NCBI GenBank assembly: GCA_048881705.1
Contig: JBHLSH010000001.1
Span: 140,688 to 204,687, forward strand
DNA from: Candidatus Heimdallarchaeota archaeon
GTDB taxonomy: Archaea; Asgardarchaeota; Heimdallarchaeia; Hodarchaeales; Hodarchaeaceae
Direction of reading: 5' to 3'
DNA: 64,000 nt
The stretch's first letter is position 1; every line of letters starts with the position of its first letter. Under the pieces are notes generated by a model, which was not told the DNA's origin, did no database searches, and saw only the letters and a program-made list of their open reading frames with translations. Below are positions 19,493-28,253 of the stretch, piece by piece. A program made the position numbers and the translations under genes.

Positions 19493-20911
19493 TTAAAAGC
19501 TTATTTTTTTGGCTAAATCTTGAATTATTTCCCATGCCTGGTTGACATGTCTCTCTTGAGTATCGGTTTGGCCTACTACGAATCGTAGACTATAGTTTCC
19601 ATTCAGTTTCGTATGAGTTAGATAGAGTTTTCCCGTTTGATTCGCTCTTACAAGCAATTCCTCATTCATTCTATTGAGTTTCTCCATATCTCTAATGGAT
19701 GAGGGCTTATATCTGAAACAAATTGTATTCAACGGAACTGGTGCTAATAATTCAAAATCATCTGCTTGTTCGATTTTCTTTTTCAGCATGTCTGTCATAT
19801 CTAAATGATATCGGATTTTTTCTTGCAACCCAGAAACACCAAAATGCCTGATAACAAACCATAACTTCAATGCCCGAAATCTTCGGCCAAGTGGAACCCC
19901 CCAATCTCGATAGTTATTCACATTTCTGGCCTGCGTCTTGAGATATTCGGGAGTGATCTCAAATGTCCGTACAAGAGCCTCGGAATCCTTTATGAAGTAA
20001 GCATTGCAGTCAAAATTTGTAAACATCCACTTATGAGGATTGAATGTGAATGTGTCAACATATTCTATCCCCTCAATCATCCAACGCTTTTCAGGGAGAA
20101 GTAGGGCGGTTCCTGCCAAAGCTGCGTCCACATGAAGCCATATCTTATACTTACTACAAATTTCCCCGATACGCCTTATTGGATCAATCGCGGTGGATCC
20201 AGTCGTTCCGATCGTAGCCACAACGGCCAGTGGAGTAAATCCATCATTAAGATCCCTTTTAATGATTTCGTCTAGTTTATCAGGTCGTAGCGCATAATTC
20301 TGATCCACGGAAACCTTCCTTAAATTGTTCTTTCCTAACCCAACGATCTTGACGTCTTTCTCAATACTCGAGTGTGTTTCACTTGAACAATATATTGTAA
20401 AAGCTCTTTTGTTATACAATCCAGTAGCATTGACCTCATAGTGAGTAGCCTTCTCTCTTGCGGTCAAAAGTGAGCAGAGAGTTGCAGTCGATGCTGTATC
20501 TTGAATTACCCCAGAAAAGGACTTGGGTAATCCAATCATATCCCTCAACCAATTCATCATCTTTTCTTCTAGCTCTGCGGCTGCAGGGGAGGTATCCCAA
20601 ATCATACACTGTGCAGCAAGAGTAGCTGTCAACATTTCAGCCAAAATAGATGGTCGGCTACTATTTGCAGGAAAATATGCGAAAAAACAGGGATGTTGCC
20701 AATGAGTAATTCCAGGAATGATTTTGTTTTCGAATTCACTGAATATGTGATTGAAATCCTCACCCACGGTTGGTGGTTCATCTGGGATCTGATTATAGAT
20801 CTCACGAGGTTTAACCTGTGATTTCACTGGATATTGTTCAACTGTCCCTAAATAATCAGTCATCCAATCAACTAGTATATGACCATTCTTACGAAATTCT
20901 TCTAAATCCAT
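19493..20911 (-). CDS. Aromatic L-amino acid decarboxylase (group II PLP decarboxylase, DDC family)
   Basis: PGITHWQHP.FFAYFPA, SPAAAELE, QDTASTA, HSSIEK, WLHVDAA, FNPHKW (PLP lysine), PEYL, DWGVPLGRRFRALKLW. Start set at MDLEEF (20911). Confidence 0.92.
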   Translation of the reverse strand: MDLEEFRKNGHILVDWMTDYLGTVEQYPVKSQVKPREIYNQIPDEPPTVGEDFNHIFSEFENKIIPGITHWQHPCFFAYFPANSSRPSILAEMLTATLAAQCMIWDTSPAAAELEEKMMNWLRDMIGLPKSFSGVIQDTASTATLCSLLTAREKATHYEVNATGLYNKRAFTIYCSSETHSSIEKDVKIVGLGKNNLRKVSVDQNYALRPDKLDEIIKRDLNDGFTPLAVVATIGTTGSTAIDPIRRIGEICSKYKIWLHVDAALAGTALLLPEKRWMIEGIEYVDTFTFNPHKWMFTNFDCNAYFIKDSEALVRTFEITPEYLKTQARNVNNYRDWGVPLGRRFRALKLWFVIRHFGVSGLQEKIRYHLDMTDMLKKKIEQADDFELLAPVPLNTICFRYKPSSIRDMEKLNRMNEELLVRANQTGKLYLTHTKLNGNYSLRFVVGQTDTQERHVNQAWEIIQDLAKKISF

Positions 20912-21019: not shown

Positions 21020-21499
21020 GTGTTTTTTAAAGTATGTTCGCACCACATTCTTGGCGATCATATTCTCGCAAACTTGGTATGGGGTTTATTTGTGGTGAAT
21101 AACGAGATTTTCTCACTTGAGGAGCCTTTTTCGTTTACGGAATTAGAAAAGAAAGGTTTAAGCATTAAACGGTCGGATCTAGCACAATTTGTAGAAAAAG
21201 GGAAACTGATGAGTAAAAAGATAGGCCGAATGACAATCTATTGGAATCATCCTTCGGTGACACCCGAAGCTACAACGGGCCTTGATTCCTTAGTTAATCG
21301 ACTGGAATTGGAAAACCAGGAACTGAAACGTGAGCTGCAATCTGAACGTGAAAAGGTACGCCGGTTTGAAATTCAAAATGGAGTTGACGAGCCGTGGAAA
21401 GAGGCAGCACTGGCCATGGCTCAAACCCTAGCTGAGCAAAAAGGAATTTCAATGCGGGAGGTGCTTGGTTATTTCAATGCTCCCCTTAATGAATTATGA
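21020..21499 (+). CDS. Mnd1-like winged-helix plus coiled-coil protein
   Basis: LAQFVEKGKLMSKKIGRMTIYWNHPS, then a coiled coil, then WKEAALAMAQTLAEQKGISMREVLGYFNAP. Both ends align without gaps to eukaryotic Mnd1 as I recall it. Start is uncertain (GTG 21020 or GTG 21092/21095). Confidence 0.7.
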   Translation: MFFKVCSHHILGDHILANLVWGLFVVNNEIFSLEEPFSFTELEKKGLSIKRSDLAQFVEKGKLMSKKIGRMTIYWNHPSVTPEATTGLDSLVNRLELENQELKRELQSEREKVRRFEIQNGVDEPWKEAALAMAQTLAEQKGISMREVLGYFNAPLNEL

Positions 21500-21509
21500 A
21501 GGCGATTTG

Positions 21510-22400
21510 TCATGTATCAAGTTCTTCCGATAAATCTGCAAGAGGAACTTCTTCCGCCTCTTTTTCTCCAGTTTCCCCTTCCTGAACCTCTCGAATCTCA
21601 GTTACTTCAGCCACTGTCTGGAAGATGCTATGAAGATCTTTGACTCGGAATTCATGTTCTTCTTCTTCGATTATTGTTGGTAAATGAACTTCCGCCCAAA
21701 CTTCATTTCCTGAATACCCTGTGAATGCAGAATGCATCTGCAGCTTCTCTTCGATAATTACTGAGTCCGTTAAGGTCAGGTTGGCAAAGCGAAGCTCGAT
21801 AAAACTGCCTTCGCTCTCCATCTCTACCTCAAGTGCAAAAGATTCCGCAAGGATTTCTGCGATAGACTGGAACATAGCTAAACTATGAATACTAGTGTCT
21901 TGTGCATTGACCAAGCAGAGATCTAGCTTTGGCCAGAGAATAAAAAGCATTCCTCGAACGTAATGTGTTTCGATAAGGTAATCCTGACTGCCTACAACCT
22001 CAGCCGGCTTCCTGCTAAACGATCTTTTCAACAAATCTGAGGCTGCACGACGGGATTTCGAATGTTTCTCGTGAATGATGGAGTAAAAATCATCTGTATG
22101 CACATAAACATCGGCCAACAGTGTGTGCCCTTCTTTGAACGAACGGGTGAGTTCCTTCACTCGCTGTGAATAACAGAATGTAGGCATCCCCTTCTTAGGC
22201 TCGCGTTTCAGTAATAGGACGTCCAAATACCGCCTTTCTGTACATTTCGGCCGAAGCATGTTCACAACTTTGTTATTCTGACATTGTTTAAGACAAAACT
22301 CCTTCCGATCCCGAACCATTTCCTCCCAGAGTGTAACGCCAGATACCCGGTTTAAGAAGCCCTGTGCAGTTTTGGAGCTTTCATTATCTGTCCAATTCAC
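21510..22400 (-). CDS. Hypothetical protein with acidic C-terminal tail
   Basis: 296-aa GTG ORF converging on the Mnd1-like gene (10 bp gap). Mixed alpha/beta sequence, with four Cys in the N-terminal third. Confidence 0.7.
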   Translation of the reverse strand: MNWTDNESSKTAQGFLNRVSGVTLWEEMVRDRKEFCLKQCQNNKVVNMLRPKCTERRYLDVLLLKREPKKGMPTFCYSQRVKELTRSFKEGHTLLADVYVHTDDFYSIIHEKHSKSRRAASDLLKRSFSRKPAEVVGSQDYLIETHYVRGMLFILWPKLDLCLVNAQDTSIHSLAMFQSIAEILAESFALEVEMESEGSFIELRFANLTLTDSVIIEEKLQMHSAFTGYSGNEVWAEVHLPTIIEEEEHEFRVKDLHSIFQTVAEVTEIREVQEGETGEKEAEEVPLADLSEELDT

Positions 22401-22723
22401 GAGAGTTCATCCAACCTATGACTGTCTGGCTGGGATACCCTTGCAAAACCACTTCCTAAAAACCCATCCCTACGAAGAAGCAGTTTGTTTAATGTCCGTA
22501 CTGCCCAATTAAGACTCCATAGAGGATGCAAGCTGTCTTATTAAACCTTTTATTTCGCTCAGAAATGTGTACTCAGACCCAAATAACATTTTATATTGTT
22601 TTACAACTAGTAAGGGGTTAAAAAATGATCAACCACCGATATTCACGAGTAGGATCCTCTGTGTTTATTATGTTGCTCGCAGTAGAGACTATAACCTAGA
22701 TTACGATATTAAATCCGTGAAAA

Positions 22724-23800
22724 TCATCTCATTTCCAGTGAGGTTCCACAAAAAGCACACACAGGTTGATCTTTCCCTTCCTGTACCTCGTTTGTGTTTT
22801 TGCAGTTGTGACAAAGGATGTAAACATTCACATCGTCTAATCTTCCTAGCGTGCCTTTTCCAGATAATGTTGAACCCTCCGCCTGCTCTTTCATTTTCAT
22901 GAAAAGCGGATTTGCTAATTCTTCTAAATTTTTTAAGGTATCTTGCAGATCTGAGAATTTTGCTTGCTCCTCTGCTTCTCGCTTCTTATGCTCGTGGTAT
23001 TCTTTTCGTTGCTTCGGCGTCATTCGTTCTAATTGTTGTAATTCTCTCAATCGATCCCGAAATTGATTTCGTTGAGTAAGGGATAATGAGTCGAGGAATT
23101 CGGGTGTGAAATTGGCTAGATCTACCAAATTCATGCTAGAAAAATCAATTTCATCTAAATTAGATGCTATATTCACAGAATTTGCCTGGGGCGGAGGGGG
23201 GGGAGGAGGAACTCCTGAAATTCCCTGCGATGGAGGGTGATTATTCGCGTTCATCCCCTTTGCTACTGATTGAATCTCGAACCGCAAATCCTTACGGATG
23301 GTGGCCAGAATCTCCCTCCGAATATCGTTTAAAGAGATTCGTCCTTGGTTTGCATTTTTGGATTTCATTTCTTCGATTTGTGCTTCTAGCGTTTTAAGAC
23401 GTTTTGCAAGACCCTCGTCCACACCAGTACTTACCATACTCATCTGTTTTATGCACGACTCGCACATTCCATCAATGAGCTCATCTTGAAAGGCCCCTCG
23501 ACCACAGGTTCGGCAGCTTTGAACCATACTAGCTAAATCAGAAAGCATACCACGCGACCTGTTACCTTTTACTCCCGATTTTTTTCTTATAGGTTGAGAA
23601 CGTCTTTTTTGCCCAGATGAACCCCTTTTGGGTTTTTTAATGGTAGGACTAGGTTTTTCAGAAACATCTACCCTGATACGGGACGTTTGGAAACTTCCCA
23701 ATTCTGCGAGAACTTCATCAACCAGCTGAAAGGGATTTTTGAGAACATTCACGACCGAAGTGAGACGTTTGATTGTTTCTTTTTCTAATCCATCTGACAT
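22724..23800 (-). CDS. Hypothetical multi-module protein (CxxC..CxxC finger, coiled coil, poly-Pro, C-terminal zinc ribbon)
   Basis: CRTC...CESC, KRLKTLEAQIEEMK, VPPPPPPQ, C-terminal CHNC...CAFC. Starts 3 bp after the stop of the upstream wHTH gene. Confidence 0.75.
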   Translation of the reverse strand: MSDGLEKETIKRLTSVVNVLKNPFQLVDEVLAELGSFQTSRIRVDVSEKPSPTIKKPKRGSSGQKRRSQPIRKKSGVKGNRSRGMLSDLASMVQSCRTCGRGAFQDELIDGMCESCIKQMSMVSTGVDEGLAKRLKTLEAQIEEMKSKNANQGRISLNDIRREILATIRKDLRFEIQSVAKGMNANNHPPSQGISGVPPPPPPPQANSVNIASNLDEIDFSSMNLVDLANFTPEFLDSLSLTQRNQFRDRLRELQQLERMTPKQRKEYHEHKKREAEEQAKFSDLQDTLKNLEELANPLFMKMKEQAEGSTLSGKGTLGRLDDVNVYILCHNCKNTNEVQEGKDQPVCAFCGTSLEMR

Positions 23801-23803
23801 TTA

Positions 23804-24511
23804 CTACTCACCACGATCTGGAATTTCCAATCCCGCCCTTTTCATAATAGAGCGCGCGGCCATTCCCTCGAACGAATCTGCTCCCTTCTTTGAATCATCA
23901 ATTATAATTGCTACCATTTTTACAAGGGATTCGAAGGATGGATTGATGAAATAGCGGATACCTGCTTCGAGAAGTTCACCAGGAGTGATATTACGCCGAA
24001 TTGCTGCTTGGTTAATTGCGGGCATATTCTGCTTAATTGTATCTAATACTTGTGGATCTAGGATTTGGATCTCAACCAGCTGTTTTTCCAGATTCTCAAT
24101 GTAGCTTTTTTTTTCTTTTAATTGGATGGTTAGGTTTTGTACGGACCGCTGGTAGTCTAAAAACCTCGAATCATCCAACAGACCACTAGAACGAACGTAA
24201 TCAGTGCATACACCACGGGAATCATTCACAATGATGTTTTGTTCCCTTTCAACCTTCTGTGCATAAAATTCTCGCCAATAGGTTTGATTAGGGAGCCCCA
24301 CGTAACGTCGAGATTGTCCCTTGGGAGATGAGACCTTAACGATCGCTACCTGATCCTGTGTTCGGTGGAGGGCCCCATCTACCTTCCCCCTCGACCATTC
24401 CAGTCTTGCTGCAAGATCTCTGACGGTCACAGGTTGAGCTAACCGTTCCAGCCTTGAAATGAGCTGAAAGTCGGTTACTTCGGAATCTCCACCGAAACCT
24501 TTGGGCACCAA
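23804..24511 (-). CDS. Winged-helix plus coiled-coil protein, Hop2-like candidate
   Basis: N-terminal wHTH LISRLERLAQPVTVRDLAARLEWSRGKVDGALHR, coiled coil DDSRFLDYQRSVQNLTIQLKEKKSYIENLEKQLVEIQ, then DPQVLDTIKQ, and C-terminal IMKRAGLEIP. Confidence 0.6.
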   Translation of the reverse strand: MVPKGFGGDSEVTDFQLISRLERLAQPVTVRDLAARLEWSRGKVDGALHRTQDQVAIVKVSSPKGQSRRYVGLPNQTYWREFYAQKVEREQNIIVNDSRGVCTDYVRSSGLLDDSRFLDYQRSVQNLTIQLKEKKSYIENLEKQLVEIQILDPQVLDTIKQNMPAINQAAIRRNITPGELLEAGIRYFINPSFESLVKMVAIIIDDSKKGADSFEGMAARSIMKRAGLEIPDRGE

Positions 24512-25089
24512 TAATCACCGAGTTTATGTTAAAAATGCGTTTAGACATGTCTATATAATAATAAAGAAATTGATAATAGAGATATTTTAGGAACGAATCA
24601 TAAGATTTTGTCAGGCCATTATAAACTTGTCTATATATGAATTAAGGAAATATAATACTCCATTTTCAAACTTAATGGATCATACCGATAGAAGAGCTTC
24701 ATATTTTCTGAATCAAGTCGCTGCAATTGCAACATTTTACAACCAGAATACCTTCATGACTCAAAGGATCTTGGTCTCTATTCGATCCTGGTTCTAGGTG
24801 TCATCGAAGCCAGTTTCCTAGAGAACCCAAAATGTTTTCACCACTACTGTGATCCAGGATTAATTGCTAGGCCTGGGTATGAACCTATTCACATATTCCT
24901 GGTACCTCATTTCAAATGGCTACTTCGTAGATAGCAAGCTTGCAGACCTATTATCTACAACCTATTTCTCATTGGGGGATACAAAATCAGAACATCATAG
25001 GAAAAAAAATGGACTTTCTTTTCAGGTTCCACTAAAGCCACTTTAATTTTTAATGCGGTATAAAAAAAGGAAACGGTTGAGCGATAATA

Positions 25090-25110
25090 TTTCGGTTTAA
25101 CGTACCGAAA
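25090..25110. promoter_or_regulatory. Inverted repeat TTTCGGT-N7-ACCGAAA upstream of the membrane-protein/copB/methyltransferase unit
   Basis: Perfect 7-bp arms in intergenic DNA, extendable by the outer AGCGA/TCGCT pairing. Confidence 0.35.
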
Positions 25111-25333
25111 ATCTCGCTTAGAAACCCCCAATCTATAAAATAAGCAAAAGTATCAGTGTTACGGACTCTCCGAATCATATCCTACGTACTTATTTTAAAA
25201 AACGTAGAACAATGAAAGCAACGTAACTGAAAGCTGACTTGTCGGAACAACTGTTGCTGTGAGGTTCAAACGTACGTTTTTCCGTGAACAGAAAGCAAAA
25301 AAAAACTAATGAAGAAAAAGGAGGTCATCTTAA

Positions 25334-25835: not shown

Positions 25836-28253
25836 TTGATAGTAGGAGTTTTTTTCGCCGTGAATTCAGATTCAACACCTTCTGAGAAGGATTTTAAGAC
25901 CCAGAATCAACGATATATATCAGAAATGTTCGCTTCAGAAGTATATATGGGGCCTGATTGTTCCTGTCACATCGAGGATGTTCTCAAGAAAAAAAGTCAG
26001 CATATCATTGAAGTTCATGTAAACACGTTGGCACATACTGTCAATGTAAGGTATGATAGTCAGAATATTTCATCTAATGAAATAAAGAAAATCTTAGCAC
26101 AATGTGGGTATGAATGTTCCTCGATACCCCCTATGCATAAGATGAAAATGGGGCATCACCCTGCTGAACCTTCAAATCGAAAATCCATGGATCACGAAAT
26201 GGATCACAAAGAGATGACACACGAAGCGATGGCTCATAAAGGCATGGATCATGCGGGGAAGGATCCGTCCATGCACCATCGAATGATGGCCAAAGACATG
26301 CGAAACCGCTTTTTTATTACAGGAATCGTGACCATTCCCGTCCTATTGTTATCTCCCACAATTCAAGCCTGGCTTGGGGTGACCCTCCCGACATTCTTGG
26401 ATAATGAATTCTTCAACGAGCTGCTATTATTGTTATTCTCCAGTATTATTGTTTTTTATGGAGGTCTCCCTTTTTATCTAGGAGCCAAGAGATCGCTCAA
26501 GAATCGTCAGGCTGATATGATGGTATTGGTTTCCGTTGCAGTCATTGCTGCCTATCTGTATTCTCTTGGAACTACATTTCTCCCGTTCCTATCCGAAGCC
26601 CCAGATTTTTACTGGGAAATCTCTACTCTCGTAGTATTTCTTCTCTTTGGTCATTGGATGGAGATGAGAGCAGTTAGCGGCGCTTCGGGCGCATTATCCG
26701 AACTAGTTAAGCTCGTCCCCTCGCAGGCGAATATGGTACAAGGGGAGAATATTGTAGAAGTATCAACACAGACACTGAAAGTCGATGATATCATCTTAGT
26801 GAAGCCTGGAGAAAGTATTCCAACGGATGGCATGATTGTAGAAGGACACAGTTCGGTTAACGAATCTATGATCACGGGAGAGTCAGTACCTTTACCAAAA
26901 GGCGTAAACGATAATGTTATAGGGGGAACCATAAATGGACAAGGATCATTACGGGTGCAGGTAACAAAAATAGGTGCTGATACGACTCTTTCCCAAATTT
27001 CTCGAATGGTTCGCGATGCCCAAAGCTCTAAACCCCAGAGCCAAAAGCTTGCAGATCGGGCAGCTAATTATCTAACCATAGCAGCGTTGGGCGTGGGTTC
27101 TTTAACATTTATCTTTTGGTGGGTACTGATGGGGGCTGACCTAGCATTTGCTTTGACTCTAACAATTACAGTCATCGTGATTGCCTGCCCACATGCATTA
27201 GGATTAGCGATTCCGACTGTAACTTCAATCGCCACCAATTTGGCAGCTAAATCAGGAATGCTAATCAAGACAGGGAATACGTTTGAGGATGCACGAAATA
27301 TCGATACAATTGTATTTGACAAAACGGGAACCTTGACCTTAGGCGAATTTGGGGTATCTGACATTATTTTGACGGATGACTGGGATGAAAAAACCTTATT
27401 GATCAAAGCCGCCGCTTTAGAACAAAATTCCGAACACACCATTGCCCAGGGTATCGTTAAGAGGGCAGAACAGGAAGGCTTGTCTATCCCGAGGGTGTCC
27501 GATTTTCAAAGTATCACTGGAAAAGGAGCAACAGCTGAATTAGAGAACCAGAAACTTCATGTTGGCAATCCACGCTTAATGAAAGAGCTCCAAATAGAAC
27601 TAGGAGAATTTGAAGAAACGATAAACACCTTATCCGCCCAAGGTAAAACGGTTGTTTTGCTTGCATCCGAAAATCGTCTCAAGGGAATCATTGCATTAGC
27701 GGACATTATACGCAAGGAGTCATTTCAAGCAATTGAAGCTTTGCAACACATGGGAGTTAAGACTGCGATGTTTACAGGGGATAATGAGAGAGTCGCCAAG
27801 TATGTTGCTGACCAACTAGGACTAGATTATTATTTTGCGGAGTTATTGCCTGGCGATAAAGCAACAAAGGTCAAGGAACTCCAAAACCGAGGAATGTCGG
27901 TTGCTATGGTGGGTGATGGTGTTAATGATGCTCCAGCACTGACACAGGCGAATATTGGCATTGCAATTGGCGCGGGAACAGACGTGGCTGTGGAATCTGC
28001 CGATGTTGTTCTTATCAAGAATAATCCTTTAGACATAGCCAAATTAATATCCCTCAGTCAGGCAACAACCCGAAAAATGAAAGAAAACCTCGTTTGGGCA
28101 ACGGGATACAATACTCTAGCCATTCCCATTGCGGCAGGATTGTTAGCACCGCTAGGAATCTTTTTACGCCCCGAATGGGGCGCTCTGGCAATGGCCGCCA
28201 GCTCTATCATTGTTGTGCTCAACGCGCTCTTATTAAGGAGACAAAAGCTTTGA
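25836..28253 (+). CDS. copB: Copper-exporting P1B-3 ATPase (CopB type)
   Basis: TGES, CPHALGLAIP (CPH), DKTGTLT, SEH, TGDN, GDGVNDAPAL, GYN, MAASS, His/Met-rich N-terminus. True start is probably a little downstream of 25836. Confidence 0.92.
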   Translation: MIVGVFFAVNSDSTPSEKDFKTQNQRYISEMFASEVYMGPDCSCHIEDVLKKKSQHIIEVHVNTLAHTVNVRYDSQNISSNEIKKILAQCGYECSSIPPMHKMKMGHHPAEPSNRKSMDHEMDHKEMTHEAMAHKGMDHAGKDPSMHHRMMAKDMRNRFFITGIVTIPVLLLSPTIQAWLGVTLPTFLDNEFFNELLLLLFSSIIVFYGGLPFYLGAKRSLKNRQADMMVLVSVAVIAAYLYSLGTTFLPFLSEAPDFYWEISTLVVFLLFGHWMEMRAVSGASGALSELVKLVPSQANMVQGENIVEVSTQTLKVDDIILVKPGESIPTDGMIVEGHSSVNESMITGESVPLPKGVNDNVIGGTINGQGSLRVQVTKIGADTTLSQISRMVRDAQSSKPQSQKLADRAANYLTIAALGVGSLTFIFWWVLMGADLAFALTLTITVIVIACPHALGLAIPTVTSIATNLAAKSGMLIKTGNTFEDARNIDTIVFDKTGTLTLGEFGVSDIILTDDWDEKTLLIKAAALEQNSEHTIAQGIVKRAEQEGLSIPRVSDFQSITGKGATAELENQKLHVGNPRLMKELQIELGEFEETINTLSAQGKTVVLLASENRLKGIIALADIIRKESFQAIEALQHMGVKTAMFTGDNERVAKYVADQLGLDYYFAELLPGDKATKVKELQNRGMSVAMVGDGVNDAPALTQANIGIAIGAGTDVAVESADVVLIKNNPLDIAKLISLSQATTRKMKENLVWATGYNTLAIPIAAGLLAPLGIFLRPEWGALAMAASSIIVVLNALLLRRQKL

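Follow-up and report, generated by a model that had tools for sequence, protein, structure and literature searches.

A small Asgard archaeal protein resembling Mnd1 and, more clearly, Swi5 in sequence lies in a block of two separately conserved gene pairs

The window, a stretch of 64,000 nucleotides from a Candidatus Heimdallarchaeota archaeon of the order Hodarchaeales, contains a block of four open reading frames (ORFs) that the original prediction had read as a recombination and pairing module, with an Mnd1-like gene (A) and a Hop2-like gene (D) enclosing two accessory genes (B and C). The layout itself was borne out, with gene A (21020/21092-21499) on the forward strand and B, C, and D all on the reverse strand:

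21092-21499, forward strand: gene A, 135 amino acids, with winged helix, leucine zipper, and Swi5-like capping motif (Asgard winged-helix/Swi5 family)
21092-21262, forward strand: winged helix of A, residues 1-57, ending in an invariant G-R-x-x-x-Y-W wing
21278-21370, forward strand: leucine zipper of A, residues 63-93, a single long helix in the AF2 secondary structure
21386-21484, forward strand: capping helices of A, residues 99-131, with an invariant, Swi5-like P-W-K ... A ... E-Q-K ... E-V-L-x-Y-F-N-A-P motif
21510-22400, reverse strand: gene B, 296 amino acids, with four invariant cysteines in a helical N-domain and an alpha/beta C-domain
22724-23800, reverse strand: gene C, 358 amino acids, second gene of the D-C operon
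23801-23803, reverse strand: spacer between D and C, exactly 3 bp from the stop of D to the start of C
23804-24511, reverse strand: gene D, 235 amino acids, first gene of the D-C operon

Genes A and B are convergent with stop codons 10 bp apart, and the ORF coordinates confirm the 3 bp between D and C. Also as predicted, the block is flanked by housekeeping genes encoding an archaeosine tRNA-guanine transglycosylase (TGT and PUA domains, 5.6e-80), a PLP decarboxylase (3e-107), and a P-type ATPase, and no integrase or transposase was seen among the neighboring ORFs, part of which were scanned. The window contains no RadA: All four RadA-family genes of the genome (three RadA-like and one RadB-like) lie outside, the nearest of them on the same contig around 118 kb upstream. 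Reading the block as a defense island or prophage was rejected because PADLOC and PHROGs gave no match for any of the four proteins. None of the proteins reached a cut-off in individual Pfam and NCBIfam scans, an Rfam scan of 20-26 kb returned nothing, and a scan for promoters and terminators stayed at the level of shuffled sequence with bacterial-type models that are uninformative for an archaeal host.

Across 24 Hodarchaeales genomes, 22 of them in the genus, synteny and co-occurrence resolve the block into two separate conserved pairs, A-B and D-C. Gene A adjoins and converges with B in all nine A-bearing genomes of the order, including one from a second family (G069), with stop-to-stop gaps of 4-57 bp, and in G053 B still has a decayed A remnant beside it. 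In 20 of the 22 genomes of the genus, the ortholog of C directly follows D in a tight operon, and their junction in these relatives varies between an overlap of 1 bp and a gap of around 17 bp. The co-transcription of D and C that had been proposed from their spacing is thus backed by a conserved operon, but this operon does not travel with A. All four genes are found together in only three genomes (G000, G061, and G048, the last with D-C inverted), and B adjoins D-C in G050; otherwise, distances from tens of kb up to Mb separate the pairs in the relatives that allow both to be placed on a single contig, and the pairs are on separate contigs in the others. In near-complete genomes G058 and G065, for example, B is found beside tgtA (in G058 also nrdJ) without A, at a distance of 2.4 Mb or 110 kb from D-C.

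The families were expected to be linked and concordantly distributed. Instead, D occurs without A in 13 genomes, and A was found with no detectable D in seven others (G063, G069, G070, G087, G088, G089, and G397). Because the pairs are unlinked in relatives and the distributions of A and D are discordant, the four genes do not form one module. A is absent from 13 of the 22 genomes of the genus, two of these being 96-99% complete, and is therefore not essential; its losses within the genus number at least three. Thirteen genomes that lack A retain B at 56-65% identity, and A has no B neighbor at all in four other Asgard genomes, so that neither gene needs the other.

Gene D combines a MarR/TrmB-like winged helix with a coiled-coil stretch that is variable and absent or shortened in several orthologs, followed by a helical C-domain, and only 10 relatives of it were found among 1.84 billion cluster representatives. 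Its "Hop2-like" label is not borne out: The D profile matched the regulators MJ223 (E 0.0018) and ST1889 (E 0.0053) in the PDB but neither Hop2 nor Mnd1, the neighbors of its ESM Atlas model belong to the TrmB/MarR/ArsR families, and none of 11 D-family representatives matched TBPIP, Mnd1, or Swi5 in Pfam. Comparing the A and D families with hhalign gave a P of 2e-4, with a signal confined to a 42-column winged helix-turn-helix (wHTH) core; the C-terminal motif scored 22.4 versus a block-shuffled maximum of 22.3. We rejected D as a paralog of A because this core alone rose above reversed, column-shuffled, and block-shuffled controls. D-C is therefore best described as a separate, genus-wide operon in which D would be translationally coupled to its partner C, and its role is probably regulatory or scaffolding.

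Protein C itself starts with a basic, serine-rich linker that is followed by a zinc ribbon, a coiled coil, a poly-proline tract, a helical region, and a C-terminal zinc ribbon. It has no family match and produced only sub-threshold hits in Pfam, and every genome encodes a paralog of around 535-600 amino acids that has the half with the poly-proline, helical, and zinc-ribbon parts in common with it. Protein B (AF2 model with pLDDT 73 and pTM 0.68) has its invariant cysteines, as judged from the alignment, at C36, C40, C53, and C76 and has 72 homologs, all unnamed and all without Pfam domains. Searches of Pfam, NCBIfam, Foldseek PDB, VIA wide, and Atlas yielded no informative family or convincing fold for it; the three structural searches returned only weak CesT/YbjN/TRCF-like matches for residues ~137-271 that are in the noise range (Z ≤7.1). 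An ESM Atlas feature search with B and D found nothing at ≥0.9. Neither the lack of family matches for both proteins nor the weak and generic folds matched by B bear out the suggestion that B and C are accessory recombination subunits, and B is a Hodarchaeales-specific, nearly universal four-cysteine protein separate from any such module.

For gene A, comparison with homologs places the true start at GTG 21092, giving a protein of 135 amino acids. Since the 25 homologs, of ~131-144 amino acids, begin at the equivalent of 21092, they lend no support to the longer ORF that starts at GTG 21020. An A-family profile search detected one copy in this genome, and one other Asgard genome (G397) holds both the short form and a long form of ~265-278 amino acids. 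The AF2 model (pLDDT 76) places one 31-residue helix between winged helix and cap where Hop2-Mnd1 has three consecutive zippers, and the family alignment shows heptad-like conserved L/E/K columns in this zipper. Conservation in the family peaks not in the DNA-reading helix but in the C-terminal cap, which has at least 20 invariant residues. A complex prediction with two copies of A scored 0.37 against a mark of 0.42, which counts neither way.

The resemblance of A to Mnd1 that had been proposed holds at the level of remote homology. The broad family profile A5, searched against 177,635 PDB sequences, matched Mnd1 of Giardia best (4y66_A, E 3e-5) and Hop2 second (2mh2, E 3.5e-4), closely followed by BlaI (E 0.0028) and ST1889 (E 0.0042). 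Foldseek over 350,542 chains likewise ranked 4y66_C, 4y66_F, and 2mh2 as the top three. The Pfam Mnd1 HTH model was matched below its cut-off by all 23 A-family members that were scanned (best 9.4e-6) and TBPIP/Hop2 by 11, and two members carry a precomputed Mnd1 HTH domain. No Pfam cut-off was reached in these scans, however, with the window's own A scoring 14.5 bits for Mnd1 against a cut-off of 23.5, and scans of this whole genome with the Mnd1, TBPIP, Swi5, Mei5, and LZ3wCH models gave nothing over cut-off; the LZ3wCH model (PF18517) had no match at A. The Mnd1 HTH model is also unspecific, with matches in 83 of 400 Asgard genomes of which the best are ordinary wHTH proteins; other Asgard ORFs that score higher than A on this model turned out to be of this kind, and winged-helix models match control genomes equally. 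Structure-only alignment with VIA-align ranked generic wHTH regulators (Z ~7) above Hop2 and Mnd1, which were not among the matches listed.

The likeness to Swi5 is clearer. Swi5 is matched by 21 of the 23 A-family members, and PF07061 is among the precomputed annotations of three database members. The window's A scores 16.0 bits as a whole protein, below the cut-off of 22.1, and its C-terminal half alone scores 18.2 bits over profile positions 50-75 of 80 only. In other Asgard genomes, family members reach 22.1-29.8 bits with a match that spans positions 1-79 of 80, and distant ones among them exceed the cut-off with 27.4 and 24.5 bits over the same positions. An unbiased scan with Swi5 across 400 Asgard genomes ranked A-family loci in its first four places, and none of 14 control genomes gave a match. 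Against the C-terminal A profile, Swi5 of Schizosaccharomyces pombe (3viq) reached an E of 0.38 only, and C-terminal-only profiles searched against the PDB mostly retrieved designed repeats and coiled-coil peptides. No Sfr1/Mei5 partner (PF10376) was matched in this genome, which is 91% complete, at E up to 10, and no recombination genes are found among the neighbors of any A homolog. Judged by sequence, A thus appears to resemble Mnd1 and, more clearly, Swi5.

An Mnd1/Hop2-like heterodimer of A and D, to which B and C would be accessory within a single chromosomal module, could be argued from the few genomes in which the genes adjoin, from the hhalign P value, from the Y-W after the wing that is kept in both A and D, and from a short "N-I-T-P-x-E-L-L" motif of D that is reminiscent of the A cap. 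We nevertheless consider this very improbable, given that the hhalign signal does not extend beyond the wHTH core, that the C-terminal motif does not stand out from block-shuffled controls, that D matches none of Hop2, Mnd1, and Swi5 and has had its coiled coil deleted in several orthologs, and that the pairs occur one without the other or up to 2.4 Mb apart. More modestly, the convergent genes A and B could be a functional unit of their own, for example if the CesT/YbjN-like domain of B chaperoned or regulated A or if antisense read-through coupled their expression. Their adjacency in every A-bearing genome of the order, the remnant of A beside B in G053, and the weak similarity of the B C-domain to small protein-binding chaperone folds would fit, but genes in convergent orientation are not co-transcribed, the B fold matches are in the noise range, and each gene is found without the other as neighbor, so that we regard this unit as unlikely, if less so than the four-gene module.

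A stronger competitor takes A for a transcription factor of an ordinary kind, a winged-helix dimer as in BlaI/MecI or TrmB-like regulators, whose likeness to Swi5 and Mnd1 is convergent or too remote to say anything about function, with the block consisting of lineage-specific regulators and proteins of unknown role. The generic regulators found by structure-only alignment, the closeness of BlaI and ST1889 behind Mnd1 and Hop2, the wide matches of the Mnd1 HTH model, the patchy distribution and dispensability of A, and the absence of recombination genes nearby are all in line with this possibility, which we take seriously without preferring it. What speaks against a plain regulator is that Mnd1 and Hop2 rank first with two separate tools (Foldseek and the A5 profile) and that the best-conserved part of A is the cap, recognized as Swi5-like by the unbiased genome scan, which a helix serving dimerization alone would not need. 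On balance, we lean toward a reading in which two independently conserved pairs adjoin by chance and A is an Asgard winged-helix/zipper/Swi5 protein, from which we infer a role as RadA cofactor.

As such a protein, A combines a DNA-binding domain like that of Mnd1/Hop2 with a Swi5-like tail and so appears to be related, in compact form, to the proteins that help Rad51 and Dmc1, the recombinases of eukaryotes. Its zipper would bring two chains together as a parallel dimer, probably a homodimer since there is no A paralog in this genome, and the two winged helices of the dimer could then hold duplex DNA. The capped end may contact the RadA filament and either stabilize it or help to capture the donor duplex, and the RadA paralogs of the genome would be available targets. 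A small and soluble-looking A together with RadA proteins that are easy to handle makes this hypothesis directly testable.

Hop2-Mnd1 and Swi5-Sfr1 are usually treated as eukaryotic inventions, and Hop2 and Mnd1 are part of the "meiotic toolkit" used for inferring sex in early eukaryotes; to our knowledge, there is no meiosis in archaea. A four-gene "pre-meiotic module" was a tempting reading of the block, but it is wrong and is now removed. If A indeed has a winged helix of the Mnd1/Hop2 type fused to a capped zipper like that of Swi5, it would provide an archaeal root for these cofactors. We tentatively entertain the further possibility that the family, with its short (135 amino acids) and long (265 amino acids) forms, is the prokaryotic stock of Hop2/Mnd1 as well as of Swi5/Sae3. 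The dedicated cofactors for loading and steering Rad51 and Dmc1, meiotic ones included, would then pre-date eukaryotes and have assisted RadA in Asgard archaea.

Among known systems, D is closest to MarR/TrmB/Lrs14-type archaeal regulators (MJ223, 1KU9; ST1889, 2D1H), to which its N-terminal 70 residues align with E 0.0018-0.0053, but it stays below every Pfam cut-off and differs from them by its lineage-specific helical C-domain and its coupling to the zinc-ribbon/poly-proline protein C. Swi5/Sae3 (PF07061) is the small subunit of Swi5-Sfr1 and Mei5-Sae3, the activators of Rad51 and Dmc1. Like A, it has a zipper and, behind it, capping helices with a terminal motif of the "...RG-x-T-x-x-E-V-L-x-x-F-G-x-P" type, but it lacks the N-terminal winged helix of A and works with Sfr1/Mei5, a partner not found in the genome of A. 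Hop2-Mnd1 is an obligate heterodimer of paralogs encoded in one genome with three consecutive leucine zippers in a rod of ~150 angstroms, whereas A is a single gene in this genome with one zipper of ~30 residues and 135 rather than ~200-230 amino acids, without a PF18517 match and with a C-terminus that matches the related Swi5 model instead. Kang et al. (2015, PMC4402518) report an HHpred connection of Hop2 and Mnd1 to Swi5 and describe LZ3wCH, the recombinase-binding far end of Hop2-Mnd1, as superposable on Swi5-Sfr1C and as able to bind the Dmc1 filament by itself. A would also back the published idea that both complexes share one filament-binding module. A 2026 preprint lists Swi5/Sae3 as an Asgard-eukaryote structural cluster. 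Despite its differences from Hop2-Mnd1 (PF03962/PF07106, PF18517; 4Y66, 2MH2), A follows the same order, in which a winged helix (wing "...K-I-G-x-x-x-Y-W") comes first, a parallel-zipper region next, and C-terminal capping helices last, and its family is an Asgard-restricted, one-zipper miniature of this architecture.

The block at positions 21020-24511 of the window holds four ORFs, here called genes A to D, and lies in a genome of 3.96 Mb (G000; 155 contigs, 91% complete). Near-identical proteins in the databases carry names that place this genome in Hodarchaeales, and it also encodes three RadA-like genes and a RadB-like one.

Gene A: start at 21092 (GTG; a longer ORF runs from 21020), 135 aa, plus strand; set from ORFs and homolog starts
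Gene B: 21510-22400, minus strand; ORF
Genes C and D: within 21020-24511, both on the minus strand; ORFs
RadA/Rad51-family and RadB-like genes: G000 contigs C1:22670-23410, C82:12753-13493, C40:33632-34282 and C49:20796-21386, outside the window

We set the start of gene A at GTG 21092 because its homologs (131-144 aa) begin at the equivalent position, so that its product has 135 and not 159 residues. The stop codons of A and B are 10 bp apart. Part of what the original prediction had described at this locus was borne out, namely the four ORFs, the 3 bp between the stop of D and the start of C, and flanking genes including tgtA (TGT and PUA domains), a PLP decarboxylase and a P-type ATPase, next to a small zinc-ribbon membrane protein, a methyltransferase and nrdJ; its four-gene recombination/pairing module and its Hop2-like gene D were not. 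It had also correctly noted that the window contains no RadA. The RadA/Rad51-family genes of G000 score strongly (316, 302 and 210 bits; the RadB-like gene, 38 bits), and it may be worth looking separately at the two full-length, near-equal RadA paralogs of this Hodarchaeales genome. No defence or phage family matched any of the four proteins. If the decarboxylase ORF is read from the first possible start codon, it shares 43 bp with the beginning of tgtA (19493-19535, minus strand). Upstream of D, about 820 bp (24512-25333) contain no ORF of at least 100 aa and no Rfam match, which is long for an otherwise tightly packed genome.

Each of the four families was searched for across the order (24 genomes), and A also across the class (83 genomes) and the phylum (400 genomes); these searches were combined with ORF-level mapping and gene-order maps. 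Two separate pairs emerged. Gene A is present in 8 of the 22 genomes of the genus and convergent with B in every one, as it also is in G069 from a second family, with 4-57 bp between the stops. Gene B is found in 21 of these 22 genomes (56-65% identity) and in nearly all Hodarchaeales genomes. C directly follows D in 20/22, and the spacing at this junction varies between a 1-bp overlap and about 17 bp. The full set of four is found side by side in just three genomes: G000, the closely related G061, and G048, the last with D-C inverted. Elsewhere, B adjoins D-C without A (G050), lies between nrdJ and tgtA without A with D-C 2.4 Mb away on the same contig (G058), or adjoins tgtA without A with D-C at a distance of 110 kb (G065); in G058, G065 and G059, D-C occupies another, shared conserved context. 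The D profile matched in 21/24 genomes of the order but gave no match in G069, in G070 or in five genomes of 91-96% completeness that carry A. Genes A and D are unlinked and discordantly distributed, the very pattern that the original prediction had named as its refutation, and a four-gene module is not supported. The tree of B shows at least three losses of gene A: It is missing from one well-supported clade of nine genomes, from G052, G053 and G054, and also from G050. In G053, a 22-residue remnant of the C-terminal motif of A with an in-frame TAG (C127:27131-27196) adjoins an intact B gene (26206-27072) and is a decayed A gene.

Gene D has only 10 relatives in an exhaustive HMMER search. 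In their alignment, the winged helix is conserved and the C-domain is helical; of the coiled coil between them, about half of the representatives have a shorter version or none. Among PDB sequences, the D profile ranks two archaeal winged-helix proteins, MJ223 and ST1889, highest and MarR proteins next, and the ESM Atlas model of D has neighbours in the TrmB/MarR/ArsR families. Since no member matches TBPIP, Mnd1 or Swi5 and the coiled coil is this variable, we reject D as a Hop2-like protein. Profile-profile comparison does connect the A and D families (P 2e-4); without realignment, the match spans 42 columns of the helix-turn-helix core, and the likeness of the D C-terminal N-I-T-P-x-E-L-L to A does not exceed block-shuffled controls.

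For genes B and C, we found nothing that links them to recombination. The 72 homologs of B are all unnamed and of Hodarchaeales type, and four invariant cysteines in the helical N-domain (C36, C40, C53 and C76; C-x3-C-x12-C-x22-C) may form a metal site of unknown type; the structure model is moderately confident, and C-domain matches to CesT/YbjN/TRCF-like folds lie in the noise range. The product of gene C has a coiled coil, a poly-Pro tract and two zinc ribbons. Every genome of the genus has a longer paralog of 535-600 aa (e.g., L101:3801-5402 on contig C43 of G000) that shares the poly-Pro tract, the helical region after it and a zinc ribbon, differs at the N-terminus, carries an additional C-terminal domain and has no Pfam match.

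The A family alignment shows a short winged helix with an invariant G-R-x-x-x-Y-W at its end, a single helix of about 30 residues (the zipper) and a very strongly conserved C-terminal motif (the cap; P-W-K-x-x-A-x-x-M-A-x-x-L-x-E-Q-K-...-E-V-L-x-Y-F-N-A-P), and the AF2 model (pLDDT 76) has the same three elements. The Mnd1-like label first given to A holds in part. The Pfam Mnd1 HTH model hits 23/23 members below cut-off (TBPIP/Hop2, 11/23), and two members carry a precomputed Pfam Mnd1 domain. With a broad profile that included distant Asgard members from the phylum scan, Giardia Mnd1 (27.5 bits, E 3e-5) ranked first and mouse Hop2 (E 3.5e-4) second among 177,635 PDB sequences, and the top three Foldseek chains are Hop2-Mnd1 entries, with marginal E-values. 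However, the Mnd1 HTH model also matches many unrelated Asgard winged-helix proteins, and in structure-only realignment generic winged-helix regulators rank equal to or above Hop2/Mnd1.

The C-terminal half resembles Swi5. Pfam Swi5 matches 21/23 members on the cap alone, and two distant members exceed the gathering cut-off over the whole 80-position profile (L104, 27.4 bits, E 3.7e-6; L016, 24.5 bits). When 400 Asgard genomes were scanned without bias for Swi5, the four best matches were exactly the A-family loci, all above cut-off and spanning positions 1-79, while other matches covered the coiled-coil part only; 14 control genomes gave no match. Three database members carry precomputed Swi5 annotation. 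In another database protein, P0123 (246 aa, from a 1983-bp JGI metagenome contig), a near-perfect A zipper and cap follow 180 unrelated N-terminal residues; the protein may be a true fusion or may have arisen through an error of assembly or gene calling.

The Swi5 link has a bare precedent in a preprint of October 2026, where "Swi5/Sae3" is named as one of the structural clusters shared by Asgard archaea and eukaryotes; its direct connectivity is weak, and the preprint describes it no further. We found no paper linking Mnd1 or Hop2 to archaeal homologs, and three points appear to be new: the fusion to a winged helix, the reading as Mnd1/Hop2 and the distribution of the A family.

Kang et al. 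2015 (PMC4402518) linked both Hop2 and Mnd1 to Swi5 by HHpred. In their work, LZ3wCH, the third zipper of Hop2-Mnd1 with its cap, could be superposed on Swi5-Sfr1C and sufficed for Dmc1 filament binding, and duplex DNA was bound by the paired winged helices. By this equivalence, gene A has both functional ends of Hop2/Mnd1 on one zipper. It would form a parallel dimer, probably a homodimer given the single profile match in this genome, whose winged helices would bind duplex DNA and whose capped end would bind the RadA filament. Homology to Swi5/Mnd1-type proteins is, in our assessment, moderately probable; the predicted role as a RadA cofactor is a more tentative proposal, and no recombination gene adjoins any A homolog. 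Gene A differs from Hop2-Mnd1 in lacking three zippers, PF18517 and a paralogous partner, and from Swi5 in that this copy stays below cut-off and lacks an Sfr1 partner. One Asgard genome, G397, encodes two A-family paralogs (L103:3977-4432 and L108:3500-4336). One is short; the other, of about 265-278 aa, has an N-terminal tail rich in K and E, and some 85 residues of coiled coil precede its cap, which is the same. This pairing is reminiscent of Hop2/Mnd1 and offers a hint as to the origin of a two-paralog system. Gene A is a credible compact Swi5/Mnd1-type protein that most plausibly works like Hop2-Mnd1 and Swi5.
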